DNA from: a virus
Reading direction: 5' to 3' (one strand)
DNA length: 64,000 nucleotides
Virus record (IMG/VR): IMGVR_UViG_3300029455_000002
Span: 13,617 to 77,616 of that record
Shown in pieces: positions 3,494 through 41,016 of the stretch (position 1 is the first letter of the stretch; every line of letters starts with the position of its first letter). The translations under genes and the position numbers were made by a program. The notes beneath the pieces are model-generated. The model saw only the letters and a program-made list of their open reading frames with translations. It was not told the DNA's origin and did no database searches.

Positions 3494-3702
3494 GAACAAT
3501 AAGCGAAATGTACAGACGTTCCGGAGGAACTGCGTATCAGCATAAGTGCTCTGAATGTAGATTCTATAGGGATGGAAAGAAGGAGAAATGTCTGATGTAC
3601 GGCAGTGACCGGGACTGGCATGGAAATTTCATTGCCTGTAAATTCTTCAATCTCGAAGATGATATGCCGGAAGGACAGATGAATATTTTCGATTATGTGT
3701 GA
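3490..3702 (+). CDS. hypothetical small protein
   Basis: ATGA-coupled ORF following the loader gene. Confidence 0.5.
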   Translation: MRTISEMYRRSGGTAYQHKCSECRFYRDGKKEKCLMYGSDRDWHGNFIACKFFNLEDDMPEGQMNIFDYV

Positions 3703-3706
3703 AAGA

Positions 3707-3764
3707 AAGGAGGAACGAGGAACCGCTGGCCAGCGAAAGGATATCCCGGTTCCTCCTTATTTTT
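3707..3764 (+). terminator. long hairpin plus T-run; 5' arm contains an AAGGAGG
   Basis: AAGGAGGAAC (3707-3716) pairs perfectly with GTTCCTCCTT (3749-3758); nested CGCTGGCCAGCG palindrome; followed by ATTTTT. Confidence 0.5.
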
Positions 3765-4979
3765 ATGAATAATGACGACTTGAAATATGCAATTGAGAAT
3801 GGTATTATCAATTTGTCTCACATACAAGAACAAATTGAAATGAATAAAAGGGAAGAAATTTTAAAAGAATACAGGGGCAGCATGTGGAAAGCATCTGACG
3901 GATATTGGAAAATCCGCATGACTTATGACGAAACCGGACAGAAAAAAGTATTCAAACGCAGGTCTAAACAGGATTTAGAAGATTTGATTGTTAAAACCCA
4001 TAGGGAAAAGGTTGAAAATCCAAAGATTAAGAGCATATTTGAAGACTGGGCGCAGCGTAAGTTTGATTTGAAAAAAATATCTGTGCAAACCTACCAGAGA
4101 TACCATCAGGATTTCAACCGGTTTTTCGGAATACTTGGCGAGAAAAAAATTAGAAGTATTGAACCAGAAGATGTTAGTAACTTCCTGGAAGAACAGATCA
4201 GTGAACACAATCTGACTGCTAAAGCCTTTTGTAACCTCAAAACAATTACCAGAGGTACCCTAAAATGGGCGAAGCGCAACAAACTAATTGACTGGAATGT
4301 GCAGGAATTATTCTATGACTTGGATGTCACAGATAAATCTTTCAAAAAAATCATCAAAGAAGACTCTAAGGAAGTTTTTAATGATGCGGAAATGAAAAGA
4401 ATCGTAGAATACCTAAAAGAAAACCAGAACATGGTAAATTTAGGAATATTGCTTATGTTTGTAACCGGTCTGAGAGTTGGGGAATTAAGTGCTTTAAAGT
4501 GGGAAGATTGGGATTCGAACACCGGAATAATCAGAATCCGAAGAACGGAAGTAAGACACTTTGAGAATCATAAAGGAATTTTTGAAGTCAAAGACTTTCC
4601 GAAAACCGAAGCAGGCGTAAGAAATGTAGTGGTTCCTCAGGGGTGTATATGGATATTGCAGAAGCTCAGAAACATGTCGGCGTTCTGCGAATATATATTT
4701 TCCAAAGATGGGAAACGATTGAACACTTATTCGTTTAGGAACCGGCTCCGGACAGTATGCAAGAACACTGGCTGCGTTCAAAAATCACCGCACAAAATAC
4801 GAAAGACCTATTGTACAATCCTCTTAGACCACAGCGTAGATAATCAGATGGTAATATCGCAAATGGGTCACTCTAACATCTCATGCTCGGAAACTTATTA
4901 TCATCGAGACCGAAAGAATCTTCAAAAAAAGCAAAAAATCATGGACAGCATAGATGAATTTATGGTAGTATCGAGATAG
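3765..4979 (+). CDS. int: tyrosine recombinase / phage integrase
   Basis: C-terminal HKIRKT...GHSNISCSETYYHRD catalytic region; N-terminal IEMNKREEIL...GYWKIR arm-binding-type region; the start could instead be GTG 3699. Confidence 0.85.
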   Translation: MNNDDLKYAIENGIINLSHIQEQIEMNKREEILKEYRGSMWKASDGYWKIRMTYDETGQKKVFKRRSKQDLEDLIVKTHREKVENPKIKSIFEDWAQRKFDLKKISVQTYQRYHQDFNRFFGILGEKKIRSIEPEDVSNFLEEQISEHNLTAKAFCNLKTITRGTLKWAKRNKLIDWNVQELFYDLDVTDKSFKKIIKEDSKEVFNDAEMKRIVEYLKENQNMVNLGILLMFVTGLRVGELSALKWEDWDSNTGIIRIRRTEVRHFENHKGIFEVKDFPKTEAGVRNVVVPQGCIWILQKLRNMSAFCEYIFSKDGKRLNTYSFRNRLRTVCKNTGCVQKSPHKIRKTYCTILLDHSVDNQMVISQMGHSNISCSETYYHRDRKNLQKKQKIMDSIDEFMVVSR

Positions 4980-25222: not shown

Positions 25223-26260
25223 ATGCCATTTAATATTTTAGAATCAATCACACAGGAAGAAAGACTTAACTTTTCTCAGGATTTCAGTGTAAAAAGACCA
25301 GGCATTCTTGACACCATATTTCCGGATGTCAAAACCCAGTTCCTGAAAGCCGAATACTACAGACTTATGGCTGGACAAAGACTGCCGGAGGTAGCATTCG
25401 TTCACGCTCTCGATACCGAAGCGGAAATTGGCTCCAGACCGGGATTCGAAAAAGTTCTGACTGAAAAGCTCTTCATCAAGAGAAAAATCAATCAGTCTGA
25501 GAGATTACAGCAGGCAATTGAAAATGGTGTGCCAGATGATGAGAATTTAAAGAAATTTGTATTTGATGATGCAGCTAATCTGTTTGAAGGAGTTGTTGCT
25601 AGAGCAAATGTCATGAAAGGCCAATTTCTTAGCACAGGTGTTGTAAAAATTAAAGAAAACAATGTGGATATGAGCATTGATTATGGTGTTCCGTCCGATG
25701 CAAAAGTAGAAATGACAGACTGGTCTAAACCAGATGCAGATATCATGGGTGATATCCAGAAGATGGTCGCTATTGCAGAAGATAATGGATTTGTGGTAAA
25801 CAAAGCCCTGACATCGCTTAAAATGATTAACTACATGAGAAATAACACTGCAATGCAGACCGCAGTTTTAGGAGCAGCTAACAAACGTCTTCTGACTAAA
25901 CAGGAACTCGCTAATCTGCTTATGCAGGAATACGGAATCACAATTGATCGCTGTGACGAGAAATTCAGATTCAGAAAAGCGGATGGTTCTCTCAAAACAG
26001 GAAGATACTTTAAAGAAGATGTATTCACTCTGTATGAAGCAGAGCCGAACGGTTCATTTGGTACTGGACTCTGGGGCGTAACACCAGAGGAACTTGAGTA
26101 CAGACAGTTCATTCAGGAAGAAAATCGCTCCTTCGTAACACTGTCCATGTGGGCTACACAAGACCCAGTTGCAGTTTGGACTAAAGCATCAGGTATGTTT
26201 GTTCCAGTAGCAGCAAAAGCTAATGGCGGTATCGTAATCGGTACCAAAGCGGGGGAATAA
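25223..26260 (+). CDS. major capsid protein
   Basis: 345 aa; AAGGAGG RBS; position; resembles the gpE-type capsid family. Confidence 0.75.
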   Translation: MPFNILESITQEERLNFSQDFSVKRPGILDTIFPDVKTQFLKAEYYRLMAGQRLPEVAFVHALDTEAEIGSRPGFEKVLTEKLFIKRKINQSERLQQAIENGVPDDENLKKFVFDDAANLFEGVVARANVMKGQFLSTGVVKIKENNVDMSIDYGVPSDAKVEMTDWSKPDADIMGDIQKMVAIAEDNGFVVNKALTSLKMINYMRNNTAMQTAVLGAANKRLLTKQELANLLMQEYGITIDRCDEKFRFRKADGSLKTGRYFKEDVFTLYEAEPNGSFGTGLWGVTPEELEYRQFIQEENRSFVTLSMWATQDPVAVWTKASGMFVPVAAKANGGIVIGTKAGE

Positions 26261-27560: not shown

Positions 27561-27758
27561 ATGATTACGTTAAATAACCCTTATGAGGGCGTGTGGGAAA
27601 AGTATCGCTCCATAGATGATATGGACATGATTCTTGAATCCCGGATAGGAGGAACAGATTATGGCAGGATACCCGTATTATCCACAACAGCCAATGATAA
27701 ACAGCCCGTACGGACAAATCCAACCGTATCAGGACAGGCTTGCACAACTGCAAAATAA
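27561..27758 (+). CDS. hypothetical small protein (3' part overlaps the next gene)
   Basis: AGGAG RBS; only the first ~33 codons look protein-like. Confidence 0.3.
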   Translation: MITLNNPYEGVWEKYRSIDDMDMILESRIGGTDYGRIPVLSTTANDKQPVRTNPTVSGQACTTAK

Positions 27759-28158
27759 TTACCAGCAAGCAATGCCGTATGGTCAGATGCAAATGCAACA
27801 GTTACAGTCCGTCCCACAGTCCCCTATGTTACAAGGTCAGATGGTGGATGGAATTGATACTGTAAAAGCTAAAGATGTGGATATGTCTGGAAATCCTGTT
27901 TACTATCCAAAGACAGACGGAACTGAAATTTACAGAAAACAGCTTCAATCCGATGGAAGAAGCAGGATTTTTGTTTACCGACTCGTAAATCCAGACGAAC
28001 AGCAATCTAAGCAAGATGAAAAGCAGGTTGATATTGAAGCAATGTTTAATCAGCTTCGGAATGATGTTTGTTCGGAGATTTCTGAAATAAAGAATATGTT
28101 TCCGACACAGATGTCGGGGACATCGGAACCTAAGCAGAACGGAGGTAGGCAGAGATGA
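27661..28158 (+). CDS. Gln/Pro/Tyr-rich hypothetical protein
   Basis: AGGAGG RBS; low-complexity N-terminus YPYYPQQP...QMQMQQLQ, then a globular C-terminal part. Confidence 0.5.
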   Translation: MAGYPYYPQQPMINSPYGQIQPYQDRLAQLQNNYQQAMPYGQMQMQQLQSVPQSPMLQGQMVDGIDTVKAKDVDMSGNPVYYPKTDGTEIYRKQLQSDGRSRIFVYRLVNPDEQQSKQDEKQVDIEAMFNQLRNDVCSEISEIKNMFPTQMSGTSEPKQNGGRQR

Positions 28159-28400
28159 CATTCAATCCAAACGCCATGATGAAAAAGCAATTTGAGAAAA
28201 TGATTTCTCAGAGGTTCGGAAGTGTTGACAACATGATGAACGATATGAGTAAATTTGCAGGAAATAATCCAACATTGAAGAATGCGTTGGATTTATACAA
28301 AAAAGGTGATACAGACCAGTTACATCAAATACAGCAAAATGTATTCAACGAAAAACATTTATCTCCAGATGGAATTATACAAAAATTCCTTGGATTATAA
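28155..28400 (+). CDS. hypothetical protein
   Basis: ATGA coupling; 81 aa. Confidence 0.5.
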   Translation: MTFNPNAMMKKQFEKMISQRFGSVDNMMNDMSKFAGNNPTLKNALDLYKKGDTDQLHQIQQNVFNEKHLSPDGIIQKFLGL

Positions 28401-28497
28401 CACTTCCCCACAATTGGGTGATTAAAAATCGCTACAATTCGGGACGACAGCCGCGGATGTCTCCTATTGTAAATAAAATTTTAAGGAGACTAAAAAC

Positions 28498-29307
28498 ATG
28501 ATGAATGGTTCAAATTATAGTCTTAGTGACATTGCTGCCGCTACAGGCTCTAATAATCGCGCCAATGATATGTGGGGCGGTGATGGCTTTTCACTTATCT
28601 GGCTCGTCCTGATCTTTGCCATCTTTGGATGGGGAGGCTTTGGCGGCTGGGGCGGCGGCTTCGGCGGCAATGGTGGAAACGGTGCAAATGGTGCTGGATT
28701 CCAAGGATGGGCCACACGTGCGGATATTAATGAGGGCTTTGCTCTTAACGATATTCAGAACGGTATCAGAGGTATTCAGCAGGGCATTTGCGACAGTACA
28801 TATGCACTCAACAATACCATGCAGAGTGGCTTCAACGGCGTGAACGTTGGAATGCTTCAGGGCTTCAATGGCGTTCAGCAGGCAATTAACGCTGATACAG
28901 TGGCTAATATGCAGAACACCAATGCATTACAGTCTCAGTTAGCAAATTGTTGCTGTGAAACAAGGGAAGCTATCCAGGGTATCAACTACAACATGGCTAC
29001 CAACACTTGTGCTCTCCAGAACACAATGAATAACAATACAAGAGACCTTCTGGAAAACCAGAACAGTAATACAAGAGCAATCCTTGATTTCCTGACTCAG
29101 GATAAGATTGCAACATTACAGGCAGAAAATACTGATCTGAAACGTGCTGCATCTCAGGATCGCCAGTCTGCGCTGCTTACAACTGCTATGGCTTCACAGA
29201 CTCAGCAGTTGATCAATGCAATTAATCCGGCAGCCATCCCGGCATACGTTGTTCCTAATCCGAATACCTATTACGGTGGATGCGGATGCAACAGTGGTTG
29301 CTGCTAA
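28498..29307 (+). CDS. Gly/Asn/Gln-rich membrane-anchored protein with a C-terminal Cys cluster
   Basis: TM helix IWLVLIFAIFGW, then GGFGGWGGGFGGNGGNG, Asn/Gln repeats, and the ending GGCGCNSGCC. Confidence 0.6.
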   Translation: MMNGSNYSLSDIAAATGSNNRANDMWGGDGFSLIWLVLIFAIFGWGGFGGWGGGFGGNGGNGANGAGFQGWATRADINEGFALNDIQNGIRGIQQGICDSTYALNNTMQSGFNGVNVGMLQGFNGVQQAINADTVANMQNTNALQSQLANCCCETREAIQGINYNMATNTCALQNTMNNNTRDLLENQNSNTRAILDFLTQDKIATLQAENTDLKRAASQDRQSALLTTAMASQTQQLINAINPAAIPAYVVPNPNTYYGGCGCNSGCC

Positions 29308-29385
29308 GTAACTCACCCTTAGAGGTTGACTAATTCTAAGAGGTGGGTTGCGGCTCACCTCTTATTTGATTGAGAGGTATAAAAT

Positions 29386-29811
29386 ATGAGTTGTAAAAAT
29401 GTTTGTAAGCTCTGCAACCATCTTGTGATAAGCCAGTCTATATCGTTTACAGGAGGCAATCTTGTAATCACACTTCCGGCAGGCAGTTACAACAATGGAG
29501 AGAAATATTGTATTGTTGTTGCACAAAGTATACCGGAAACAACCACAATTTCTGCTCCGGTAGTAATTCAGGTAGGAACGGGAACAACCTTGTATCCGTT
29601 GCAGAATCGTTGCTGTGCACAAGTTACGGCTTGCGGAATAAGAACCAGAACGAAGTATGCAACCAGAGTAGCTACAAGTGCAACCGGCGGAGTATTCAAG
29701 ATGTTAGGAAATCCGGCTTGTAGTCCAACTAACAATTTAACAGCAATTAATGGTACAGCCCCAACGACAGAAGCACCTGTTACACAGGCTGTTAGAAAGG
29801 GGGAATTGTAA
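29386..29811 (+). CDS. Cys-rich hypothetical protein
   Basis: CKNVCKLC N-terminus, RCCAQVTAC, Thr/Ala-rich tail. Confidence 0.55.
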   Translation: MSCKNVCKLCNHLVISQSISFTGGNLVITLPAGSYNNGEKYCIVVAQSIPETTTISAPVVIQVGTGTTLYPLQNRCCAQVTACGIRTRTKYATRVATSATGGVFKMLGNPACSPTNNLTAINGTAPTTEAPVTQAVRKGEL

Positions 29812-30437
29812 TGCATAAAGTTGCAATGGAAATGGGAAAATGGGCTATGGAGAAAGCCAAAGCGCATGGATTTGACAATCTTAGTTCTCAGGACTGGGAT
29901 GATCTGAAAGATTGCTTAGAAGCAGTAAAATGCGCAATCTGTGCAGACAAAGATTATCGAATCGTAGAAGCTATGGACGAATGCGAACAGGAAGAAAAGT
30001 ATCTTGGACGCATGGGATATGACAGATATCGTTATGTAAACGGCAGATTTGCACCAAAAGGCAGAGGAAGCCGCATGGGATATATGCCATATCTTCATAT
30101 GCAGGATGATGACTGGATAAGCGAATATCCGAATAATCCAGAGTTTGACCAGAACCTGTACCGCATGGGATATCATCCAGACCGTAGTGATATGAGAATG
30201 GATGGAATGAACCATAAGCAGTCCAGATATGGTGAAACCTACGACAGATACAGCGAGAATCGCAGACATTACCATGATTCCAAAGACGCTGAGTCTAAGA
30301 GAAAAATGGATGATTCCATGAAAGAGTATACAGAAGATATCATCCGCAACATGAAAGAAATGTGGGATGATGCAGACGCATCAATCAGACAGCAGATGAA
30401 AACTGACTTAACACGTTTCATACAGCAGATGAATTGA
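29811..30437 (+). CDS. hypothetical protein with RMGY repeats
   Basis: Three xRMGY motifs; charged and His/Asp-rich. Confidence 0.55.
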   Translation: MHKVAMEMGKWAMEKAKAHGFDNLSSQDWDDLKDCLEAVKCAICADKDYRIVEAMDECEQEEKYLGRMGYDRYRYVNGRFAPKGRGSRMGYMPYLHMQDDDWISEYPNNPEFDQNLYRMGYHPDRSDMRMDGMNHKQSRYGETYDRYSENRRHYHDSKDAESKRKMDDSMKEYTEDIIRNMKEMWDDADASIRQQMKTDLTRFIQQMN

Positions 30438-30505
30438 ATATGAAATGAGCTTTGCCCTTGTTACAGGAATGTAGCAGGGGCTTTTTGATTGAAAGGAGAA
30501 TTATT

Positions 30506-30817
30506 ATGAAGAAATTATTTATTAGTCAGCCGATGAGAGGAAAAACAGATGAGGAAATCCTTGCAACTAGAGAAAAAGCGATTAAGAGCGCAGAGAAGCA
30601 GATTGGTGAACCTGTAGAAGTAATTGATTCTTTCTTCCAGTCAGCACCAGTTGACGCAAAACCACTTTGGTATCTGGGCGAATCCCTTAAACTACTGGCA
30701 GAAGCTGATGTGGCGTTCTTTGCTAAAGGATGGGACGAAGCCAGAGGATGCAAGATTGAGAATACTTGCGCTATTGAATATGGCATTGAGACCGTTATCG
30801 AAGATTATACAGCATAA
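30506..30817 (+). CDS. DUF4406 / nucleoside 2-deoxyribosyltransferase-like protein
   Basis: KLFISQPMRGKTDEEI...ADVAFFAKGWDEARGCKIE pattern. Confidence 0.55.
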   Translation: MKKLFISQPMRGKTDEEILATREKAIKSAEKQIGEPVEVIDSFFQSAPVDAKPLWYLGESLKLLAEADVAFFAKGWDEARGCKIENTCAIEYGIETVIEDYTA

Positions 30818-30841
30818 GCCAAAAAAGGATGGTGATAAACT

Positions 30842-31228
30842 ATGCTAAGACAATTTTACATGAACGGTGACCTATGGAGAGTGCAGTTTGTATCTCCGCA
30901 TGACAGCGTGTTAATTGACCGTACAGGCAATAGGACGCTTGGAGTATCGGATTATTCCACCCACGTTATTTCAATCGCAAATAACCTGTATGGAGAACTT
31001 CTGAACCGTGTATTTATTCATGAGTTAGGGCATTGTGTGATGTTCAGCTATGGTCTATTACCAGAACTTCATCGCATGGTCAAGAAACGGTATTGGGTGG
31101 ACGCGGAGGAATTTGTATGCAATATTCTGGCAGATTATGGACAGTTTGTTATTGGCACGGCCAGAGATATCTTAGGAAACCAGTTCACATATGTAGCTCC
31201 CATTGGGGCAGAAAGGATGAGTGCATAG
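30842..31228 (+). CDS. putative zinc metalloprotease (HExxH)
   Basis: FIHELGHCVMF motif; 128 aa. Confidence 0.5.
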   Translation: MLRQFYMNGDLWRVQFVSPHDSVLIDRTGNRTLGVSDYSTHVISIANNLYGELLNRVFIHELGHCVMFSYGLLPELHRMVKKRYWVDAEEFVCNILADYGQFVIGTARDILGNQFTYVAPIGAERMSA

Positions 31229-31471
31229 ATGGCAAAAGCAGAAAACACAATTATTTTTGATGGCATTCAGTACAAACCCGGTGATGAATTGCCGGATTTA
31301 GGTAGTTGGGTATGTACAGATGCAAAAGGTATGGTTCGCGATTATGAGGGACTTTCAAAAGACGTGTCAAAGCTCCCGCATTATGTACAGAGCGGTTCTT
31401 CGGCGTTATGCCTTGATACCTCTGAATTATACGAATATCACAAACCTACTGACACATGGTACAAACTATAA
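31229..31471 (+). CDS. small fibre-associated protein; homolog of the N-terminus of 35746..36756
   Basis: AENTIIFDGIQYKPGDELPDLGS...YEGLSKDVSKLPHYV aligns with AQNTVIIDDVEYKPGEQLPELGS...YEGLAKDSDKLPLYV. Confidence 0.65.
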   Translation: MAKAENTIIFDGIQYKPGDELPDLGSWVCTDAKGMVRDYEGLSKDVSKLPHYVQSGSSALCLDTSELYEYHKPTDTWYKL

Positions 31472-31484
31472 GGAGAAAAAACGC

Positions 31485-33494
31485 ATGGCATTAACGGCAA
31501 AAAAAGTATACGCAATTTTAAAACGCCAGATTTCCGATATGGAGTCAAAAATAAAAACACCTGTCATATATAAAGGAACCGTTACGACAGCTGATTTGCT
31601 TCCACTAAATCCAAGTATCGGTGATATGTACAATATTGAACAGAAATCAATATATGGCGAAGCAGGAATGAATGTGGCATGGAACGGCGTAGTTTGGGAC
31701 ACCATGGGAGCACCGATTGATATGTCACTTTATATTAAATCTGATGAATTGGCAGATTGGGTAAAACAGCAGAACAAGCCAACATATACGGCTGAAGAAG
31801 TGGGGGCATTGCCCGCAGATACAAAGATACCAACAAAAGTCAGTGAACTAGAAAATGATTCAGAATTTCTTTCCGGAACAGATAAGACCCTGAGCGTATC
31901 TGGAAAGGCTGCGGATGCAGCAACTGTAGGCGAACAGTTAGAAAAGATAACAGAAATATTAAATAGTGCTTCAAGCATTGAAAACGCACTTTCAAATTTC
32001 TTCGCCCTCCGCAGAACAGGAAAAGTCTACACAACCAGAATCTACAAGTATGACACATCCACCAGCCCGACAGGAGTGAAAATGAATGACAATGAAGGAC
32101 TGGTGAGAAAACCGTCTACAAATACAGTGATTGGACAGGATGATTACAGGGAAATTGGCGTATTCATGCACTTTCCATGTAATTTTACCGTAGATGATAA
32201 AGGTTTTAACCATGTGACTGCACTGCAGGGACAGCCGGATTTTAAAAAGACCGGAAAAGTAGATGTGGGAGAGGTTACAATGTCCGCGTGGGTTGGCATC
32301 ACAGACAATCCTGAGTATGTAGATTATCATTACTCAGACAGTCCGAACGAAGCCCTTGGCCTTAGACCAATGGGAGAGTCAATTAATCCGGACGGAACAA
32401 TATCACCTTTTATGATTCATGGAAAATACGGGGCAGGAGACATTGATGGAGTGCCGTACAGCTCCGCAGGGCTGATTCTGGCAAACGGAAGCCAGAAAGG
32501 AGGAAAACCAGTATCACATACAGGACTGATCGCATACATGAGAAAGAAAGGCTCAATGTACGTGGGGACAACAAACTGGGATCTCTTTTACAAACAGCTT
32601 ATGATGATTATTTTGTACGCAACTACGAACAGCCGGAGCGTTATGACCGGATGTAATTCTTATACATCACAGGAAATGGCAACAGTTGCAGAAACCGGAG
32701 TAACAAGAGTAATTCTACCAAAAGCAAAAGCAAACAATTATATTGTTGGGTCTTATGTATCTGTCGGGGATATTGGTTCAAATACAAATAAAGGTAGATA
32801 TTACGCATACATGCACAACCTCGCATATGACGTGAAGATCTTGAAGATTGAACCGGTAGACGATACAAATTCTGCAATATATTTGGACACAGAACCATTC
32901 AACACGACATTAACGACCTGCATCTCAACAATGCCATGGCGGACCGGCTCAACCGACAGCGTGCTTGGATCAGATGGATCACCGTTCTCAAATACAGATA
33001 ACAAGAATCCATTCAAGATCCAGGGAATCGAAACCGGATACGGTGCTTATGAAGTCCTCAGTAATGTATTCATGGATATTGTTACAGATGAAGACGGAAC
33101 ACCAAAGAGAGACGTATACATCTGTATGGATGCGTCACTGCTTACAACGGATATGAATGCAGCAAAGACACGATACAAGAAAGTAGCGGCTCAGGTAACA
33201 TACACAGCAGCATCATGGAAATACATCTCAAAATGCTTTGTTGATCCAGCACTGGGAATTATGGTACCGACGGAAGCAAAAGCTGGAAGTACAACAGGAT
33301 TCTGCAATGGACTGTATACAGATTCAGGCACGAGCGGCCAAAGAGAATGGCTGTCCCTGGGCGGTCTGGACGATGGCACGTTTTGCGGCCTCTGGCTTCT
33401 GCATGCGCACTATGGCGTTGGCGATGCGTACTGGGCTATCGTCTCCGGCGTTTCGCCGAACGGCACACGGGGTGAATGGCAGGCGGCAGCCTGA
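31485..33494 (+). CDS. receptor-binding tail fibre; DGR target protein with a C-terminal variable region
   Basis: AAGGAG RBS; N-terminus is paralogous to 35746..36756; the last ~50 codons contain VR. Confidence 0.85.
   Translation: MALTAKKVYAILKRQISDMESKIKTPVIYKGTVTTADLLPLNPSIGDMYNIEQKSIYGEAGMNVAWNGVVWDTMGAPIDMSLYIKSDELADWVKQQNKPTYTAEEVGALPADTKIPTKVSELENDSEFLSGTDKTLSVSGKAADAATVGEQLEKITEILNSASSIENALSNFFALRRTGKVYTTRIYKYDTSTSPTGVKMNDNEGLVRKPSTNTVIGQDDYREIGVFMHFPCNFTVDDKGFNHVTALQGQPDFKKTGKVDVGEVTMSAWVGITDNPEYVDYHYSDSPNEALGLRPMGESINPDGTISPFMIHGKYGAGDIDGVPYSSAGLILANGSQKGGKPVSHTGLIAYMRKKGSMYVGTTNWDLFYKQLMMIILYATTNSRSVMTGCNSYTSQEMATVAETGVTRVILPKAKANNYIVGSYVSVGDIGSNTNKGRYYAYMHNLAYDVKILKIEPVDDTNSAIYLDTEPFNTTLTTCISTMPWRTGSTDSVLGSDGSPFSNTDNKNPFKIQGIETGYGAYEVLSNVFMDIVTDEDGTPKRDVYICMDASLLTTDMNAAKTRYKKVAAQVTYTAASWKYISKCFVDPALGIMVPTEAKAGSTTGFCNGLYTDSGTSGQREWLSLGGLDDGTFCGLWLLHAHYGVGDAYWAIVSGVSPNGTRGEWQAAA
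33348..33449 (+). repeat. DGR variable repeat (VR)
   Basis: 102 nt; 88 identities to TR; all 14 mismatches fall at TR adenines. Confidence 0.9.
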
Positions 33495-33495
33495 C

Positions 33496-33513
33496 AGAGG
33501 GGCTGTCCCCTCT
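33496..33513 (+). promoter_or_regulatory. GC hairpin downstream of VR (DGR target-recognition-type stem-loop)
   Basis: AGAGGGG CTGT CCCCTCT: 7-bp stem and 4-nt loop, immediately after the stop codon, with no T-run. Confidence 0.55.
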
Positions 33514-33598
33514 ATGTAACTGATAACTAATCAACTTCGAAAAAGCAGAATAGCAATAAATTACGGACTTGTAACACGAGGTAGCGGTTCCTGTTCCC

Positions 33599-33700
33599 TG
33601 GCTGTCCCTGGGCAATCTGGACAATGGCACGATTTACGGCCTCTGGATTCTGAATGCGAACAATGGCGTTGGCAATGCGAACTGGAATATCGTCTCCGGA
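33599..33700 (+). repeat. DGR template repeat (TR)
   Basis: Non-coding copy of VR; 23 adenines, 14 of which differ in VR. Confidence 0.9.
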
Positions 33701-33904
33701 TTTTCTTGAAAATGATTTGATATTTGTGTTACATTTCGCTCCGCAGGACGGAGCCTGCAACAGCAGCGTGGGGCATCACCGAAATTTGATTGAAGCCGAA
33801 CCTTGTGATCGGGAGCATAGGGGCCTGAGACAAGGACCATGAATGCAGTTGATTCATGTGTGGGGTGAGTAGAAAAACCGAAAACCCCTTATATCAAGAA
33901 ACGA

Positions 33905-35134
33905 ATGAAACGGTATTGTAAAAACATAACATTAGATCAGAATTTTATAACCGCATGTATCTACGAATGTCTAAGCGATAAATGGAACCGTATGGATACA
34001 GCCAGATTTCTGGCAAACTATACGAATATCATTACAGCCAGGCAGATACACAGGATTATAAAAGAAAACCTTAAAGACTGGTTGCATAATTTAGTCTGCA
34101 CAGCAGCGGCAGGACTGGAAGAAGAAATAAAACTTAGAAAAGTATCTTTTGATCCTATAGAGACAAGCGCAAGACTGGATGGAAATTCAGGAAAAGTAAG
34201 AGATATAGGCGTTGAGTGCATAAAACAGCAGATATACGATTATGTAGTCACAAACGGCTTAAAAGAATTAATTGTAAGAAAAGTAGGAACTTATCAATGT
34301 GCGAGCATTCCAGGGAGAGGACAGATCTATGGAAAAGAAGCAATTGAAAATTGGATCCGCAAGAATCCGGGCAAGACCAGAGTAGCAGCAAAGGGAGATG
34401 TCCGGAAATGCTATCCATCCATCAACAGGAGAAAATTGAAAAGAATGTTAGAGAAGCAGGTCAGAAATGAGGACCTGCTTTATTTGACTTTCGTTTTAAT
34501 TGACTCATTCGATCAGGGGCTGTCAATCGGATCATACTTGAGCCAATGGCTCTGTAATTATTATCTGAGTGCAGCTTATCATTATACTGCTGAAAAGCTG
34601 TTCAAGAGGAAGAAACACCGAGACGGAACAACAGAAGAAATCAGGCTGATTAATCATGTATTGTTCTACATGGACGACTTCCTACTGATCGGAAGCAGAA
34701 AGGCAGATGTGAGAAAAGCAATGAAACTCCTGATTAAATACATGAATGAGTATTTAGATCTGACGGTAAAATCAGACTGGAAGCTGTTCCAGATCGACTG
34801 GATAGACAAAGAGGGAAAACATCATGGAGAACCTATTGATATGATGGGATTCAAAATATATCGGGACCACACAGAGGTAAGGCGGAGCATTTTCCTGAGA
34901 GGACGCAGGACGTTTGTAAAAGCCGGGAAATATGCGGAGAAAGGAAAAGCGATACCATTAGATCTTGCGTACCGGTGCATAGCATATTACGGATGGTTCA
35001 AACATTTCGATTCTGAATATTTCAGAGAAAAGTATAACGTAGATAAGATCTTTGAGAAAGCGAAAAGGAGGGTAAGTCGTGAAAGCAAGATTTACAGAAA
35101 AGCAGGATTCTGTAACCTGGAATGTGCTGCCTGA
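33905..35134 (+). CDS. DGR reverse transcriptase
   Basis: YMDDFLLIG active site; SIGSYLSQWLCNYYL (the DGR-specific xGxxxSQ motif); 409 aa. Confidence 0.9.
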   Translation: MKRYCKNITLDQNFITACIYECLSDKWNRMDTARFLANYTNIITARQIHRIIKENLKDWLHNLVCTAAAGLEEEIKLRKVSFDPIETSARLDGNSGKVRDIGVECIKQQIYDYVVTNGLKELIVRKVGTYQCASIPGRGQIYGKEAIENWIRKNPGKTRVAAKGDVRKCYPSINRRKLKRMLEKQVRNEDLLYLTFVLIDSFDQGLSIGSYLSQWLCNYYLSAAYHYTAEKLFKRKKHRDGTTEEIRLINHVLFYMDDFLLIGSRKADVRKAMKLLIKYMNEYLDLTVKSDWKLFQIDWIDKEGKHHGEPIDMMGFKIYRDHTEVRRSIFLRGRRTFVKAGKYAEKGKAIPLDLAYRCIAYYGWFKHFDSEYFREKYNVDKIFEKAKRRVSRESKIYRKAGFCNLECAA

Positions 35135-35420
35135 TGGAAACGTGGATGTAATGATATGTCTGAATGAAAAGACTGTTACAGAAACTTATCCGGATACAGA
35201 TCCGGAGACAGAACAGACAGTATTCGAATATGATTTTAACCAGTTCCGGGAAAGACAGGAGAAGATCTCAGAGGAAACTGTAAGAGCATCACCGGAAAAA
35301 TATCTGAAATATATTCCGGAGAAAGAAAAAAGCACTGAACAGAAATTTGCAGAGCAGGCAGAACAGATCGAAATGTTGAAAGACTGCCTGCTGGAAATGA
35401 GTGAACAGGTTTATGCGTAG
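35079..35420 (+). CDS. acidic small post-fibre protein
   Basis: GTG start with an AAGGAGGG RBS; overlaps the RT 3' end by 56 nt. Confidence 0.5.
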   Translation: MKARFTEKQDSVTWNVLPDGNVDVMICLNEKTVTETYPDTDPETEQTVFEYDFNQFRERQEKISEETVRASPEKYLKYIPEKEKSTEQKFAEQAEQIEMLKDCLLEMSEQVYA

Positions 35421-35460
35421 AAATTTAATTATTTTATTGTTAAGCAAAGGAGACAAAGAA

Positions 35461-35607
35461 ATGATGGCGAAATTATGGGCGAGTGAAATTTTAAGCAAAG
35501 AAACTATTGAGGAAGCAAAAAAGGAATACAACAGAGTTCCACGCCTGTTAAAAGAAAAGGTAAAGAAGCTTCTCATTGACGCAGGTATGGAGGAAATTAC
35601 TGAATAA
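35461..35607 (+). CDS. small phage protein (CD1375-like pattern)
   Basis: MMAKLWASEIL...VPRLLKEKVKKLLIDAGMEE; AAAGGAG RBS. Confidence 0.45.
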   Translation: MMAKLWASEILSKETIEEAKKEYNRVPRLLKEKVKKLLIDAGMEEITE

Positions 35608-35745
35608 ATGACGAAACTTCAGATCATAAGAGGGTTTTAGTTAAGCAATTCGCAAAATTACAAAAGAAAAGATAGAAAATCTCTCAATTCTTACAAAGGA
35701 AGAAAAAGATTATATTTTGAATTGATAAGTGAAAGGAGAACTATT

Positions 35746-36756
35746 ATGGCAGTTGCACAAAATACAGTAATCATTGATGATGTAGAATACAAGCCAGGCG
35801 AACAACTTCCGGAACTTGGCAGCATTCACCGAGTTTTCAAAGATGGTGGTAAACGTCATTATGAAGGACTTGCGAAAGATTCAGACAAGCTTCCTCTGTA
35901 CGTTGCTAACAATTCATCATGTTTTATGACCGATACAGGAGAGTATTACAAATTTGATGAGAGTAAGAAATTGTGGTATAAACCTGATAAGATCGAACAA
36001 AGCAAAGTAACACCGATTGAAGTATATGGCGTTCTTAATGGAAAAATCAAACAGGTCTCAGAGGACGTAGAGGGAATTGCAACACCACTTTTATACAAAG
36101 GTTCAGTATCAGACATTTCACAACTTCCGTTATCTCCTAAGATTGGATGGATGTATAACATATCTGAAAAATCTATTTATGGAGAGGCAGGTATGAATGT
36201 CGCATGGACAGGAGAAATATGGGACGCTCTTGGACCGGCTATTGATATGGCACCATACTTGAGAGAGGATTCCGAGATCATAACATCCTTGAAAACCAAA
36301 ACGGAAAATCTGGAATCTGCGAATTACACCGACAGAGGTACATTAGCTGATACTGACGCATTTCTGATCAATGACGGTACAGGAATGAAAAAGAGTGTGC
36401 TGAGCAAGCTGTCAGACTTTGTCCTTAATAAAATCGCCGATAAAGTGTTTGCAAAGCTTCAAACGAACGACAAAACAATTCTGGGAGCGATTAATGAATT
36501 AAATAGTAAGGCTCTGATGACTTATGTTGGCAAAAAAGCAACAAATGAAGATGGTGTAATTCCCATAAATAATATAATTTCTGGAGTGTCAATAAAAAAC
36601 GTTATTAATGCAAAAGCATATATTTCCGATGGAAATAAAAATATTTACTCAAGGCTATACTCGTACAACTCTTATGCTTATATATTGGTCACTGACTACG
36701 AAGGCAATCGATTTAAAAACACAGAATTAAATGTTGTAGTGCTTTATACAAAATAG
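35746..36756 (+). CDS. second, invariant tail fibre / receptor-binding paralog
   Basis: The N-terminus equals a fusion of homologs of 31229..31471 and the first ~90 aa of 31485..33494 (KSIYGEAGMNVAW shared). Confidence 0.7.
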   Translation: MAVAQNTVIIDDVEYKPGEQLPELGSIHRVFKDGGKRHYEGLAKDSDKLPLYVANNSSCFMTDTGEYYKFDESKKLWYKPDKIEQSKVTPIEVYGVLNGKIKQVSEDVEGIATPLLYKGSVSDISQLPLSPKIGWMYNISEKSIYGEAGMNVAWTGEIWDALGPAIDMAPYLREDSEIITSLKTKTENLESANYTDRGTLADTDAFLINDGTGMKKSVLSKLSDFVLNKIADKVFAKLQTNDKTILGAINELNSKALMTYVGKKATNEDGVIPINNIISGVSIKNVINAKAYISDGNKNIYSRLYSYNSYAYILVTDYEGNRFKNTELNVVVLYTK

Positions 36757-36872
36757 TAACTGCCTGGTATCCGTCGATGCTGATTCAGAGAATATAAATT
36801 TGAGGATCAAAAAAATTTACTATTGCCATTTAATTCATTAAAATTCTTAAAACTTTTGTAAAAAGTTCTACC

Positions 36873-36897
36873 TGTTATAATGAAACCGTGCTATAAT
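36873..36897 (+). promoter_or_regulatory. two tandem extended -10 promoters
   Basis: TGTTATAAT (36873-36881) and TGCTATAAT (36889-36897). Confidence 0.45.
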
Positions 36898-37034
36898 TTC
36901 TATAACAGAATACAAAAAAAGAGGAGCTGGACTCCCGTCTACCAAACAAAAAGTCCAACTCCAAGCACCACAAAGGGTACAGGTATATTATAACACGGTA
37001 CCCTCCCTTTGTGAACCCAAAAGGAGGGTTTTTT

Positions 37035-38021
37035 ATGGAAAATTTCGCAACAGAGTTTATGACCAAGTTAGACGGAAAGTTATCCCCAGAACAGATGAAG
37101 ACAGTTCTGGCAGAATTGGAAATGTTTTCTGCAAATTTTGATATTGAGAAAAAGCAGACAAACATTGTCCCGTATCAGGGCTGTGTACCAGAGTGCTATA
37201 AGGTTTACCTTGTCTCTAAAAAGATAGAGGGAATGTCGCCGCAGTCTCTAGTGACTTATAAATGTAATCTTGATGATTTCTTTCGTTCAGTCAATAAGCC
37301 ACTGGCCCAGATCACTACAAACGATATAAGGCTGTACTTGTATAGCTTGTCAGAAAGAAATACGAATCGAACGATTGACGGGAAGAGGCTTATCATTCAT
37401 ACTTTCTTCGACTGGTGCGTAAAAGAGGAGTATCTTGCAAAGAATCCGTGCAGTCGAATTAATCCGATTAAATTCGAGGTAAAGCCGAGGGAGCCGCTTG
37501 ACGATATTGAGTTAGAATTGGTCAGAGATGCTTGCAAAGATTACCGTGAACGTGCGATTATCGAACTTTTTTATAGCACCGGTTGCCGTGTATCAGAGAT
37601 GGTGGTCCTGAAGAAGTCAGATATTGACTTTCAGACTAAAGAAGTGCATCTATTTGGAAAGGGAAGTAAGCATCGCATATCTTATATCAACGCTAGGGCA
37701 GAAGTGGCATTGAAAAAGTACTGGTTTACTAGAGATGACTGTTGCGACAGTGCAATAGCAACTATTCACAAACCGTACAGAGGAGTCACAAAGACACAAC
37801 TGGAACAGATTGTAAGAAAAATTGGGGAAAGGTCGGAAATCGGAAGAAACTTATACCCACACCTTATCCGCCATACAACTGCCAGCTCAGCTCTTGAAAG
37901 AGGTATGAATGTTACGGACCTGCAAAAGATGCTGGGACACGAGAAACTTGATACAACTATGATTTATGCAAAGGTTAATCAAGAGTCGGTCAGATACAAT
38001 CATCATAAATACGTCATTTAA
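37035..38021 (+). CDS. tyrosine recombinase (XerC/D-like)
   Basis: RVSEMVVL...HLFGKGSKHR...HLIRHTTAS...LGHEKLDTTMIYA catalytic R..H..R..Y pattern. Confidence 0.85.
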   Translation: MENFATEFMTKLDGKLSPEQMKTVLAELEMFSANFDIEKKQTNIVPYQGCVPECYKVYLVSKKIEGMSPQSLVTYKCNLDDFFRSVNKPLAQITTNDIRLYLYSLSERNTNRTIDGKRLIIHTFFDWCVKEEYLAKNPCSRINPIKFEVKPREPLDDIELELVRDACKDYRERAIIELFYSTGCRVSEMVVLKKSDIDFQTKEVHLFGKGSKHRISYINARAEVALKKYWFTRDDCCDSAIATIHKPYRGVTKTQLEQIVRKIGERSEIGRNLYPHLIRHTTASSALERGMNVTDLQKMLGHEKLDTTMIYAKVNQESVRYNHHKYVI

Positions 38022-38031
38022 GGAGAACTAT

Positions 38032-38430
38032 ATGAGAGGATTAAAACGTCAAAAGCAAACAATATACTGGTCTAGGGTGACAGAAGAACTTGACGGAATA
38101 GACACAATCAAGAAATATCAGAATCCAGAACTGCATTGTCTATCCGTGTCAGCAACAGCCGGAACGCCGGAAGAATTATCTGCCGGGTACGTCCCGGACT
38201 ATGACAGATACATCACAAATTTTGACCGTAGCTTTAAACCGCAGATTGCAGATGTGTTCTGGATAGACTGCAAACCGGAATTGAACGAATCTGGAGAACT
38301 TATTTTGAATGAATCTGGAGCGCCTACAGTCCCACCAGATTACCGTCTAAAAAAGATTCTTGATACCCAAAGAGGGAATGTGGCACGGTATGGTATCAAA
38401 TATATAGGAGATGGCTCAGATGGCGAATAA
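38032..38430 (+). CDS. head closure / head-tail adaptor protein
   Basis: Position; size; the start is 10 nt after the recombinase stop, with AAGGAG. Confidence 0.5.
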   Translation: MRGLKRQKQTIYWSRVTEELDGIDTIKKYQNPELHCLSVSATAGTPEELSAGYVPDYDRYITNFDRSFKPQIADVFWIDCKPELNESGELILNESGAPTVPPDYRLKKILDTQRGNVARYGIKYIGDGSDGE

Positions 38431-38938
38431 GAGCATTAAAATGGAACTGTCACATAAATCTATACAGGATACAATAAAACAGCTCAGAGCGTATCAGAAG
38501 TCGCTTGCAAGCAAGAATGAAGAGTTTGTCCGCAGGCTGGCAGAACTTGGAATCCCGGTCATAGATGAAAATATAGCATTGGCGCAAGGCGATTCTGACA
38601 AAAGTCATAACACCTATATCAGAATCAATAACTTTGGCGGCTATTCTCAGGCAACGCTTGTGTGCGAAGGCTCTGACCTCTTGTTCATTGAGTTCGGGTC
38701 GGGTATTTCGTACAACACTCCGGCAGGAACCAGCCCACATCCTAAGGGACAAGATTTTGGTTATACAATCGGTTCGTACGGGCAAGGGAACGGAAAGAAT
38801 GAATCGTGGGTTTATTATTCCGATTCTGGCGAATGGGTACGCTCTTATGGTACCGAAGCCACTATGCCGGTATATAAGGCAAGCGTGAAAATCATGCAAA
38901 ACATCAGAAAAATTGCAAAAGAAGTTTTCGGTTCATGA
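38420..38938 (+). CDS. HK97 gp10-like tail-head joining protein
   Basis: Second ATG has the better RBS spacing; LLFIEFGSG motif. Confidence 0.5.
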   Translation: MANKSIKMELSHKSIQDTIKQLRAYQKSLASKNEEFVRRLAELGIPVIDENIALAQGDSDKSHNTYIRINNFGGYSQATLVCEGSDLLFIEFGSGISYNTPAGTSPHPKGQDFGYTIGSYGQGNGKNESWVYYSDSGEWVRSYGTEATMPVYKASVKIMQNIRKIAKEVFGS

Positions 38939-38954
38939 AGAAATATGAATATGC

Positions 38955-39038
38955 TATGCAATCATATGGAATCATATTCATTAAAGATGATATACTGTAA
39001 CATATAAAAGCATCTGTCAAAACGACAGGTGCTTTTTT
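38955..39038 (+). promoter_or_regulatory. repeat cassette copy 2: conserved 24-mer, -10 element, terminator hairpin and T6
   Basis: Identical 24-mer at 38955-38978, 12 nt, TATACT (38991-38996), 8-bp hairpin 39011-39031, T6 at 39033-39038. Confidence 0.55.
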
Positions 39039-39071
39039 CATGCAAAAAACATAGAAAAGGAGAATGTAAGC

Positions 39072-39746
39072 ATGTTTGTAGGAACAATTGTCATCCAAAA
39101 AGTAGAAAGAAGTGTTGTTACTAGCCTTGATGTTGCAGAAACTTTTGAAAAAGAGCATAGCAAGGTTTTAAGAGATATACGAGAGCTTGAATGTTCCGAA
39201 GATTTTCGACTATCCAATTTTGGACAGTCCTCTTATATCAATTTGCAAGGTAAAAAAATGCCGATGTATTACATGACAAGAGACGGATTTACGCTTGTTG
39301 CTATGGGATATACCGGTGAAAAAGCAATGAAGTTTAAAGAGGGATATATTCGCCAGTTCAATGAAATGGAAAAACTTCTTATTGGTAAAATCAGAGAACG
39401 AGACAAAGGCATTGCAGTAAGACAGGCATTGACCAATGCGCTTAAAGAATCACAAGAAAATGAGAGAATGCATGGTCATGCATATTCGACATATACAGAT
39501 ATGGTATATCGCACATTGTTTGGTAAAACTGCAAAACAGCTTAGAGAAGAAAAAGGAATTTCTACTAAAGACAATCTAAGAGATTTCCTCACCGAAGAAG
39601 AATTGAAATCAGTTCAATCAAAAGAAATGCTTGTTAGCGGATTGGTTGATTGTGGATGGGGATATTCTCAAATAAGAGATTTCCTTAAAGATCAGTTTCA
39701 AAATATGTTAGAACAGGCAGGAGGATTCTATGCCAGACGCGATTAA
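39072..39746 (+). CDS. rha: Rha family phage regulatory protein
   Basis: VVTSLDVAETFEKEHSKVLRDIREL...MTRDGFTLVAMGYTGEKAMKFKEGYI. Confidence 0.75.
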   Translation: MFVGTIVIQKVERSVVTSLDVAETFEKEHSKVLRDIRELECSEDFRLSNFGQSSYINLQGKKMPMYYMTRDGFTLVAMGYTGEKAMKFKEGYIRQFNEMEKLLIGKIRERDKGIAVRQALTNALKESQENERMHGHAYSTYTDMVYRTLFGKTAKQLREEKGISTKDNLRDFLTEEELKSVQSKEMLVSGLVDCGWGYSQIRDFLKDQFQNMLEQAGGFYARRD

Positions 39747-40137
39747 CAACCCGGTATCAGAAGTATTTTCACGATGGGGCAACTCAATTCAACCAACAGT
39801 CGGCAAAGGCAATTTTTCCATGGAAAAAAGCCAGACAATAGCATCTGGAAAAACGAAATACGCCAGATTGTTCATGATGGGGAATCCCACGCAGTCAACA
39901 AGTCTTGAAGGTCACGAATGCGCAACAATTCTTTCGTTTCAAGTGGAAAGTTACGCATCTGGGACAAAGGCTTTATCGACTGCATATGAAATCGACAGCA
40001 AGAGTCATCAGGCTATGGTTTCAATGGGATTTCGCCGGACATACGGGCCAGAAGAGGTTGCAAACTCTGAAAAGAGTTTTAAACGAATTATAAGCCGGTA
40101 CAGCAGAATTTACACCGGGCAATTATTGGAAGCGTAA
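39730..40137 (+). CDS. putative tail completion protein
   Basis: AGGAGG RBS; position upstream of the major tail gene. Confidence 0.4.
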   Translation: MPDAINNPVSEVFSRWGNSIQPTVGKGNFSMEKSQTIASGKTKYARLFMMGNPTQSTSLEGHECATILSFQVESYASGTKALSTAYEIDSKSHQAMVSMGFRRTYGPEEVANSEKSFKRIISRYSRIYTGQLLEA

Positions 40138-40180
40138 CAGCTTCTATTTTTTATACCAAAAAGAAAGGGGTGTGTCCTAT

Positions 40181-40393
40181 ATGAGTAAAGATAAATTACA
40201 ATGGCTGAAAGCTGCGGGAATCAGAGCTGTTAAGACAATTGCTCAGACAGCAGTTGCAACAATCGGAACCGCGACAGTCCTTGGAAGCGTTGACTGGAAG
40301 ATGGTCGTATCCGCGTCCGTTCTTTCCGGCGTTTTATCCTTGCTTACATCTGTAGCAGGGCTTCCAGAACTGAAAACAGGCACAGATGAATAG
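40181..40393 (+). CDS. holin (LL-H / phi-LC3-type pattern)
   Basis: WLKAAGIRAVKTIAQTAVATIG...SVLSGVLSLLTSVAGLPE; two TM helices. Confidence 0.65.
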   Translation: MSKDKLQWLKAAGIRAVKTIAQTAVATIGTATVLGSVDWKMVVSASVLSGVLSLLTSVAGLPELKTGTDE

Positions 40394-40438
40394 AAAGGAC
40401 GGTGATCCTTTTATCTCCCGGATGCAGGGTTACGCATC

Positions 40439-40459
40439 AGAGCCGTGTGGCTCTTTTTT
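40439..40459 (+). terminator. rho-independent terminator
   Basis: AGAGCC GTGT GGCTCT followed by T5. Confidence 0.65.
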
Positions 40460-40498
40460 ATTGTGATTTTATAGCTGAAAAGCAGAAAGGAGCCGAAT

Positions 40499-40993
40499 AT
40501 GGCAGATAAAGGAAATATAGCAGGCGTAAGTACCGTTGGTTCGCTTACCGGATATGCAGTTGAAACAACAGCAGGTACTAAACCGACAGCTTTTAAACTT
40601 CTTCACAGAATCAATGCTTCTGATGAAATTAAAATTGACGTAGAAACAATCGACGCTTCCGCGCTTGAAGATGAAGTTGAAAGAACTATTGCAGGACGTG
40701 GTTCTACAGGTGGTACATTCAACGTAACTGTGAACGTAACTGATGAAACTATCACTGAATGGGAAACCTTAATTAGCGAATACAAAGCAGGAAAAACAGA
40801 GGGGAAATCTATGTGGTATGAAGAATACTTCCCGTCTCTTAAGAAAGCGTTCTTCACCAAAATCGAGCCGCCGACAATCATTCCTAAACCAGCAAGAGAT
40901 CAGAACGGACTGTTAACCGTCGAAATGTCTCTTACTATCAATGAGTACGTCGGACCGGGCGACGCAATAGCTCCAACTGACAGCGGCCTTTAA
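40499..40993 (+). CDS. major tail protein
   Basis: 164 aa; AAAGGAG RBS; lies immediately upstream of the chaperone pair. Confidence 0.65.
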   Translation: MADKGNIAGVSTVGSLTGYAVETTAGTKPTAFKLLHRINASDEIKIDVETIDASALEDEVERTIAGRGSTGGTFNVTVNVTDETITEWETLISEYKAGKTEGKSMWYEEYFPSLKKAFFTKIEPPTIIPKPARDQNGLLTVEMSLTINEYVGPGDAIAPTDSGL

Positions 40994-41016
40994 ACACATT
41001 TGGGAGGACAAATAAT

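Follow-up and report, generated by a model that had tools for sequence, protein, structure and literature searches.

A diversity-generating retroelement (DGR) lies within a 64,000-nucleotide (nt) stretch of viral DNA, positions 13,617 to 77,616 of the IMG/VR record IMGVR_UViG_3300029455_000002 (hereafter the window, numbered from its first letter). It consists of a target gene whose 3′ end carries a variable repeat (VR), a non-coding template repeat (TR) and a gene for a reverse transcriptase (RT). We consider it very likely that these three parts make up a functional DGR free of accessory genes, borne by a phage of Blautia-like Lachnospiraceae that is temperate or prophage-like. The element belongs to the described type lacking the accessory gene avd (Architecture A), and is a well-documented example of that type rather than a new kind of system. 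Its main parts are as follows.

31485-33494, + strand: target (variable-protein) gene, 669 amino acids (aa), presumed virion surface or fibre-like protein.
33348-33448, + strand: VR, 101 nt, with 13 differences at TR adenines; 49 distinct VRs among 50 relatives.
33599-33699, + strand: TR, 101 nt, non-coding, with 22 adenines, which occupy the first and second codon positions of the VR frame.
33905-35134, + strand: DGR reverse transcriptase, 409 aa, with R99, IGSYLSQ at residues 208-214 and YMDD at 255-258.

VR and TR align without gaps at an offset of 251 nt and share a block of 101 nt, in which 13 of the 13 internal mismatches fall at TR adenines (P ~6e-11, hypergeometric, terminal position excluded). 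An earlier note on this DNA, made from the letters alone, had described the pair as 102 nt long (33348-33449 and 33599-33700), with 14 mismatches and no difference at any non-adenine position. Careful alignment found no non-adenine mismatch inside the repeat, and all 14 differences of the longer version do face an A in the downstream copy (hypergeometric P 1.4e-11, with 23 TR adenines per 102 nt and 22 in the 101-nt block). However, the fourteenth, C at 33449 against A at 33700, was treated as the repeat boundary, because the C is fixed in 10 of 10 related VRs and the base directly after it differs at a non-A position (G versus T). Judged from these alignments, it marks the border between VR and TR, i.e. 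between the initiation of mutagenic homing (IMH) sequence and its TR counterpart (IMH*), and is not a mutagenised site. The TR is rich in AAY, and the variable adenines are all found at codon positions 1 or 2 of the target frame, in AAT, AAC, ATT and TAC codons. VR spans codons 622-655 of the 669-codon target and falls within its last ~50 codons, whilst TR sits in a 410-nt intergenic region, ~150 nt after VR and ~204-205 nt upstream of RT. The 149-nt gap between the repeats, the ~204-nt spacing from TR to RT and the peptide readings all agree with the earlier note. No third VR-like copy was found elsewhere in the window, and the TR is identical to that of four other contigs.

An initial scan of IMG/VR used the TR as a pattern with N at each adenine and returned ten loci, with a different VR in each. 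Such a scan is biased towards adenine-only variants, and the statistics given here use in its place a VR-blind set chosen by RT protein alone. This comprised 78 loci, together with 8 from bacterial genomes, in which repeats were found de novo by self-BLAST. Nearly all loci contained a pair of ~100-115 nt just upstream of RT with adenine-only mismatches, including lineages of 37-60% RT identity, and the same pattern was present in Blautia and Hespellia genomes. Amongst the 50 close relatives in which both copies were available, 593 VR/TR mismatches were at TR adenines against 14 elsewhere, and there were 49 distinct VRs to only 12 distinct TRs. Nucleotide diversity (pi) reached 0.65 in the adenine-templated columns of VR, compared with 0.026 in its other columns and 0.03 in TR. 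In the flanks it was 0.02-0.09, with values of 0.05-0.09 upstream and 0.021 over the 46 nt that follow VR, where conservation is the highest in the locus. This is the reverse of a monomorphic VR between polymorphic flanks, a pattern which the earlier note had named as contrary to its reading and which we looked for. Moreover, locus L011 is 99.4% identical to the window over 6,614 nt, and 13 of the 41 differences fall inside the 101-nt VR, 13/13 of them at TR adenines, with the remainder of the 6.6 kb differing by 0.43%. On this sequence comparison, the excess of VR differences indicates that the DGR has been recently active in the window's own lineage. The mismatch ratio, the many VRs for few TRs and the DGR-type RT described below lend support to the original suggestion that the locus would diversify by mutagenic retrohoming.

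The RT gene product is a reverse TRANSCRIPTASE whose 409-aa length, YMDD box and SIGSYLSQ motif had been correctly read beforehand. In DGR RTs the signature is [I/V/L]GxxxSQ, against QGxxxSP in group II and retroviral RTs (PMC7826257); in the window it is present as IGSYLSQ (I208...Q214), with the catalytic box at Y255-M-D-D258. Across 30 family members there is no change at G209, S210, Q214 or YMDD, and conservation is at least 90% at I208 and S213. The RT open reading frame (ORF) of the window is intact, with YMDD and all of these invariant residues. When the single sequence was searched against the whole PDB, the sole match was 8ub7, whose residue numbering (I181, G182, Q187) agrees with the Bordetella DGR RT (bRT) of Handa et al. 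A profile of the 30 family members, searched against all PDB chains, also recovered bRT 8ub7 (7.6e-18, 68 bits), followed by group II intron-type RTs, all at 5.5e-8 or weaker; no retron or Abi RT structure was matched by this profile among all PDB chains. R99 aligns to bRT R74 and I208 to bRT I181, two residues shown to promote adenine mutagenesis in bRT (PMC7826257), and the counterparts of R74, I181 and Q187 are conserved. Going by these sequence matches, the RT falls among the DGR RTs and outside the group II, retron and Abi/DRT RTs; clustering with group II, retron or Abi RTs was what the earlier note had held to be incompatible with a DGR.

The RNA that would carry TR appears to be structured, and the elements concerned are listed here.

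33565-33581, + strand: 5′ arm of a long-range helix, GGACTTGTAACACGAGG, pairing with 33722-33738.
33700-33721, + strand: IMH*-like AT-rich segment after TR, ATTTTCTTGAAAATGATTTGAT, an imperfect match to the VR-side sequence.
33722-33738, + strand: 3′ arm of the long-range helix, ATTTGTGTTACATTTCG.
33739-33766, + strand: two conserved stem-loops after the helix, from aligned sequences read by eye.
33862-33888, + strand: 3′ RNA module, conserved, shortly before the start of the RT gene, GGGGU-GAGUAGAAAAACCGAAA-ACCCC.

Folding of the TR region as a single sequence was uninformative (z-score +0.5) and per-lineage duplex energies against shuffles were too noisy, so covariation tests were needed and were used instead. 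Across 13 lineages the arm sequences that bracket TR vary, yet they remain complementary. Duplexes of each arm with its own partner averaged -15.2 kcal/mol, compared with -8.1 for cross-lineage partners (permutation p<5e-5), and the own partner ranked first in 11 of 13 rows. RNAalifold independently predicts the helix, with 14 pairs of which 9 show compensatory double changes. The motif A(A/T)TTC recurs after TR across lineages. Of the two stem-loops that follow the helix, the first reads CTCCG-CAGGA-CGGAG (33739-33753) and the second CTGC-AACA-GCAG (33755-33766), with UUCG or GAAA tetraloops in relatives. By eye, their pairing is kept despite changed stems, as in L065 (CTCCA/TGGAG and ACCAG-GAAA-CTGGT) and L091 (CACCC-GAAA-GGGTG). 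In the 3′ module the loop (TAGTAGAAA..CCGAAA) is conserved across lineages, and the 5-bp stem carries compensatory changes in 2 pairs. We likened the helix to the Bordetella RNA by way of a preprint (bioRxiv 10.1101/2023.10.23.563531) whose survey is of Avd-containing DGRs only; from the alignments, a TR-clamping architecture appears to be present here in an element without Avd.

Two further elements lie at and beyond the 3′ end of VR.

33439-33468, + strand: IMH-like 3′ end of VR, consisting of the invariant shared block TCGTCTCCGG followed by the VR-specific GC-rich CGTTTCGCCGAACGGCAC.
33469-33513, + strand: conserved element downstream of VR, a motif and two hairpins, in close relatives except L062.

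Beyond 33448 the two copies diverge, being GC-rich on the VR side and AT-rich on the TR side as the earlier note had noticed. The TR-side segment retains 7/15 residual matches to the VR-side segment, which fits the bioinformatic IMH/IMH* criterion of PMC5758913, and by analogy with the Bordetella IMH (PMC5758913) we infer an IMH-like role for the 3′ end of VR. The downstream element has a three-part layout. The motif GGGGTGAA at 33469-33476 is followed by a small covarying hairpin (CAGGC-GGCA-GCCTG, 33480-33493), which overlaps the target stop codon, and then by a GC-rich hairpin (AGAGGGG-CTGT-CCCCTCT, 33496-33513) that is conserved across lineages and absent after TR. The element is kept in all close relatives but L062, where it is deleted, and the same layout is found in lineages with 37-60% RT identity, in which the stem sequences of the first hairpin differ. 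No T-run follows the hairpin at 33496-33513 and it is therefore not a classical terminator. In Bordetella a GC-rich inverted repeat downstream of the IMH is needed for efficient homing, and such repeats accompanied 34% of the DGRs in a survey (PMC5758913).

The start codon of the target gene is the ATG at 31485, with the ribosome-binding site AAGGAG 8 nt before it, which corrects the mechanical ORF start at 31320. Its separation from an upstream 80-aa ORF (orf80) is kept in relatives. The protein belongs to phrog_17147 (9e-127), a family of unknown function, and its named homologues are from Blautia. Its N-terminal ~85 aa are 51% identical to the product of a second fibre-like gene at 35722-36756. 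A receptor-binding tail fibre is a plausible identity for the target. Tentaclins were considered as its family and rejected, because the tentaclin VR is N-terminal, on a C-lec domain followed by Ig domains. The 344-aa product of the second fibre-like gene is itself fusion-like, with residues 9-87 showing 48% identity to orf80 and residues 96-183 showing 51% identity to the target N-terminus; orf80 (31229-31471) and the DGR target are separate genes in different frames, a split that relatives share. Many relatives (L015, L017, L020-L022, L027-L031 and others) also have an imperfect direct repeat in the N-terminal third of the target gene, at an offset of 210 nt with a sub-periodicity of 42 nt (locus ~1500-1980), which the same self-BLAST did not find in the target of the window.

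The comparisons reveal directly that the repeat is adenine-specific, that hypervariation in the population is restricted to its adenine-templated sites and that the element was active recently; they also bring out an RT of the DGR type and the conservation of the RNA helix and hairpins. Upon these a mechanism may be proposed, in which every biochemical step is inferred, as are the ends of the transcript, what the hairpins do and the binding of receptors by the target. An RNA from ~33565 to ~33900 would be made, possibly by read-through from the target gene. Within it TR would be clamped by the two arms of the long-range helix, followed by the conserved stem-loops and the 3′ module. The RT encoded directly downstream would copy TR into complementary DNA (cDNA), with misincorporation opposite adenines only. 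The GC-rich IMH-like end of VR and the hairpins just downstream would identify VR as the recipient and set it apart from TR. The outcome would be randomisation of up to 13 codons within the C-terminal ~30 residues of a virion-associated protein, namely AAY, ATT and TAC codons, plus AAC in most relatives where the window has GAC.

Two other explanations for the locus were weighed against an active DGR. The cassette could be a fossil, which once diversified its target and is now inactive, so that the differences between VR and TR are historical. Decayed derivatives of the cassette do exist (L097-L100, L104 and L107). However, the RT ORF of the window is undamaged, the TR adenines are retained in a TR shared with four other contigs, and the RNA helix and hairpins are intact. 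The 99.4%-identical L011, differing in VR at 13 adenine-templated sites against a background of 0.43% over the rest of the 6.6 kb, is also hard to reconcile with an inactive element, and we regard a fossil as very improbable. Less probable still is an ordinary duplication or gene-conversion tract, coincidentally biased towards adenines, next to an unrelated RT from a group II intron, retron or defence system. The Pfam RVT_1 match is indeed weak (3e-8), the best NCBIfam model by name is a group II maturase (TIGR04416), and PADLOC gave weak matches to generic and DRT RT models. Against this, the maturase model scored 42 bits against a cut-off of 300, and the PADLOC matches were all weak (best 9e-12 for the generic 'RT' model, DRT models 4e-8 or weaker) with none to a model named as retron RT. 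Scanning 33000-35300 with Rfam at E of 1 or less brought up no RNA family, whether of introns, retrons or any other kind, and the RT-family profile prefers bRT by 10 orders of magnitude. This explanation is effectively refuted by the adenine specificity in the window (P ~1e-11), the 593:14 ratio in independent relatives and the match of the profile to bRT.

Several observations weigh against a functional DGR, or at least temper it. The evidence is comparative throughout, and 14 of the 607 VR/TR mismatches in relatives fall at non-A positions. A scan for promoters and terminators gave no result above chance, with no promoter upstream of TR. An AlphaFold2 model of the last 300 aa of the target had a mean pLDDT of 62, falling below 50 over VR, whilst foldseek gave no match better than E=0.15 and there was no PDB or Pfam profile match. 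The model and these negative searches leave a C-type-lectin fold neither supported nor excluded. Likewise, the description of the target as a fibre or receptor-binding protein in the earlier note could not be confirmed, the target having no Pfam, PDB or fold match. In addition, four of ~52 close relatives, namely L012 (= L009), L016, L024 and L025, have a TR-position copy with VR-like substitutions (~3694-3800, locus coordinates) that has lost many adenines. In L012, L024 and L025 its substitutions come in blocks that match exactly the VR found on that contig; the L016 copy departs from its own VR as well and has a 1-nt indel. These altered TRs could result either from short-read assembly chimerism via the 101-nt repeat, or from VR-to-TR conversion or homing of cDNA into TR. 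Lastly, neither Avd nor any other known accessory gene was found in or near the cassette, and the Bordetella mechanism, which requires Avd, is therefore not transferable unchanged.

No Avd, HRDC or MutS-like (MSL) gene was found among the neighbouring ORFs scanned, and no window-wide Avd profile search was run. The ORFs checked were orf80, the target, the second fibre-like gene and the integrase with Pfam; the RT, the target and the ORF overlapping the RT stop (orf113) with Pfam and NCBIfam; and the RT and orf113 with PADLOC. The earlier note had called the DGR complete, a word that should not be taken to mean Bordetella-like, since the element is without Avd. Avd is present in ~74% of DGRs and is essential in the Bordetella phage. 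A survey found 29% of DGRs ('Architecture A') to be without an accessory gene and one RT lineage to be entirely without avd (PMC5758913). Two small genes follow the RT in the window.

35079-35420, + strand: orf113, 113 aa, acidic (pI 4.4), overlapping the RT stop and co-travelling with the cassette.
35401-35607, + strand: orf68, a small basic protein, phrog_1382/1567, of unknown function, the last gene of the shared cassette.

The possibility that orf113 is a functional replacement for Avd, an essential and undescribed accessory protein acting with the RT, was favoured at first. All RT lineages examined, including those with RT identity as low as 37%, have an acidic ORF of 100-140 aa (pI 4.1-4.9) that starts at the RT stop or overlaps it, and orf113 lies inside the 3.6-kb mosaic cassette common to different phage backbones. 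It is a real, well-conserved protein family with a confident model (pLDDT 85.5, a beta-sheet then a long helix) and no PDB fold match, Pfam or PHROG family. Moreover, Wu et al. described an acidic, motif-less accessory gene, 'CH1' (160-169 aa, pI ~4.7), only in Avd-less DGRs, where it lies beside elements without avd, HRDC or MSL (PMC5758913). Set side by side by description only, orf113 and CH1 are both acidic, motif-less and RT-adjacent, but differ in length, 113 aa against 160-169 aa. However, orf113 is intact in three types of relative with differing RT deletions (L097-L100, L104 and L107) and is under purifying selection (codon-position differences 14/9/39), which together suggest a role not dependent on the RT, for example as a fibre- or tail-module protein. 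Furthermore, Avd is a basic helical barrel, unlike the acidic sheet and helix of orf113, and a weak structural match to a DUF4376 phage protein (E 1e-3) points to the structural module. The intact copies in RT-deleted relatives led us to downgrade the Avd substitute, which we now think unlikely. Doubtful to the same degree is its wider form, in which orf113 would be an undescribed Avd-replacing factor of a large Avd-less clade of Firmicutes gut-phage DGRs with an Avd-independent TR-clamping RNA. It is more likely that orf113 is a phage structural-module protein flanking the cassette than a retrohoming cofactor. Conservation of orf68 is limited to relatives with RT identity of at least 55%, and it is probably a phage gene that forms no part of the DGR.

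The DNA of the window is that of a phage. Upstream of the cassette are genes for terminase, portal and major head proteins, and downstream is one for the tape measure. Among genomes, the best match (RT 89%) is an uncultured Blautia metagenome-assembled genome, with a 60% relative in Hespellia stercorisuis; in the INPHARED phage collection the cassette had no megablast match. A mosaic cassette of 3.6 kb (31977-35607) is the sole part common to the window and many phage contigs of ~36-39 kb, at 89-96% identity. It comprises the C-terminal three-quarters of the target, TR, RT, orf113 and orf68. The mosaic break falls inside the target gene, and the N-terminal quarter of the target is thus backbone-specific. 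The neighbours of the cassette in relatives are lysis genes in some and minor-capsid or connector genes in others. The decayed cassettes differ in what they retain: L097-L100 retain a 46-nt piece of TR, joined to the final ~65 RT codons; L104 has lost TR and RT wholly, leaving the VR hairpins and the GGACT motif of the 5′ arm as a scar; and L107 holds a TR fragment and a C-terminal RT remnant. Phage of the L097 type is abundant; 120 blocks of the collection list its orf113 protein.

The surroundings of the cassette in the window were also inspected. The cassette and several unannotated genes have the major head gene (25223-26260) on one side and the tape-measure gene (41950-46917) on the other; for a tail-fibre gene this position is unusual. 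The unannotated genes are located in 27661-31228 and 37966-41000 and include one for a Gly/Cys-rich 269-aa protein (28498-29307, phrog_16490); a Rha-like ORF at 39072-39746 was identified by eye. A 2.4-kb module (35628-38031) encodes a tyrosine recombinase (37011-38021) as well as the second fibre-like protein (35722-36756). It is missing in L034, L047 and L051 (~35627 joined to 38032), and in L011, the nearest relative, only 36519-37922 is missing, the part with the recombinase. The module has the look of an optional insertion, flanked by the DGR cassette on one side and by the head-tail and tail genes on the other, and a recombinase beside an alternative fibre gene could hint at fibre switching. 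At the far end, 63881-63999 holds a 27-nt tandem repeat (4.4 copies, 93% matches) that reaches the window end and has a 54-nt super-unit that is 100% identical; its period is in-frame and may encode a repetitive protein segment.

One point of comparison is the DGR of Bordetella phage BPP-1 (mtd-avd-TR-brt). In both elements a virion protein gene carries VR at its 3′ end, TR is non-coding, ~90% identical to VR and different from it only at adenines, the RT has IGxxxSQ, YMDD and counterparts of R74 and I181, and the GC-rich VR end is followed by a GC-rich hairpin with a 4-nt loop. They differ in that the window element has no Avd and is ordered target-TR-RT, with TR ~150 nt after VR. Its RT is 409 aa long compared with 328 aa in BPP-1, with core identity of only ~20-25%, its target has no detectable Mtd or C-type-lectin signature, and its host is a Gram-positive gut anaerobe. 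A much closer likeness is to Architecture A (A1: TR-RT) and the avd-lacking 'Lineage 3' of Wu et al. [quoted passage not shown] Association with Firmicutes and with phages was common in that survey (PMC5758913). The conserved orf113 at the RT stop departs from the published description of Architecture A (PMC5758913), and may or may not correspond to the 'CH1' or 'PAG' genes of Wu et al.

Similarities also exist with the Bacteroides Hankyphage (PMC6199706) and Faecalibacterium prophages (PMC11792537), which are temperate gut phages, abundant in human gut metagenomes, whose DGR diversifies a structural or receptor-binding protein. The window phage differs from these in host lineage (Blautia and Hespellia-type Lachnospiraceae), RT subfamily and target family (phrog_17147). 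Group II intron RTs and maturases are the closest non-DGR RT family by sequence and have the palm-and-fingers core in common with the window RT. In contrast to them, the window RT has IGxxxSQ rather than QGxxxSP, no maturase or endonuclease domain in it attains the model cut-off, and it is accompanied by a TR/VR pair and no intron RNA.

The current understanding of DGRs is unchanged by this element. It does offer a natural example of a DGR without Avd, which is indispensable in the sole system to have been dissected biochemically; the TR-clamping RNA helix is conserved in this example even so. Dozens of natural VR variants and diverged relatives make a ready comparative data set, which defines the adenines used and the cis elements that accompany the recipient site. 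Moreover, a compact, RT-only DGR could serve as a chassis for targeted-mutagenesis tools. The family is abundant in human gut viromes and its hosts are Blautia-like Lachnospiraceae, and it is therefore relevant to the dynamics of phages and their hosts in the gut.

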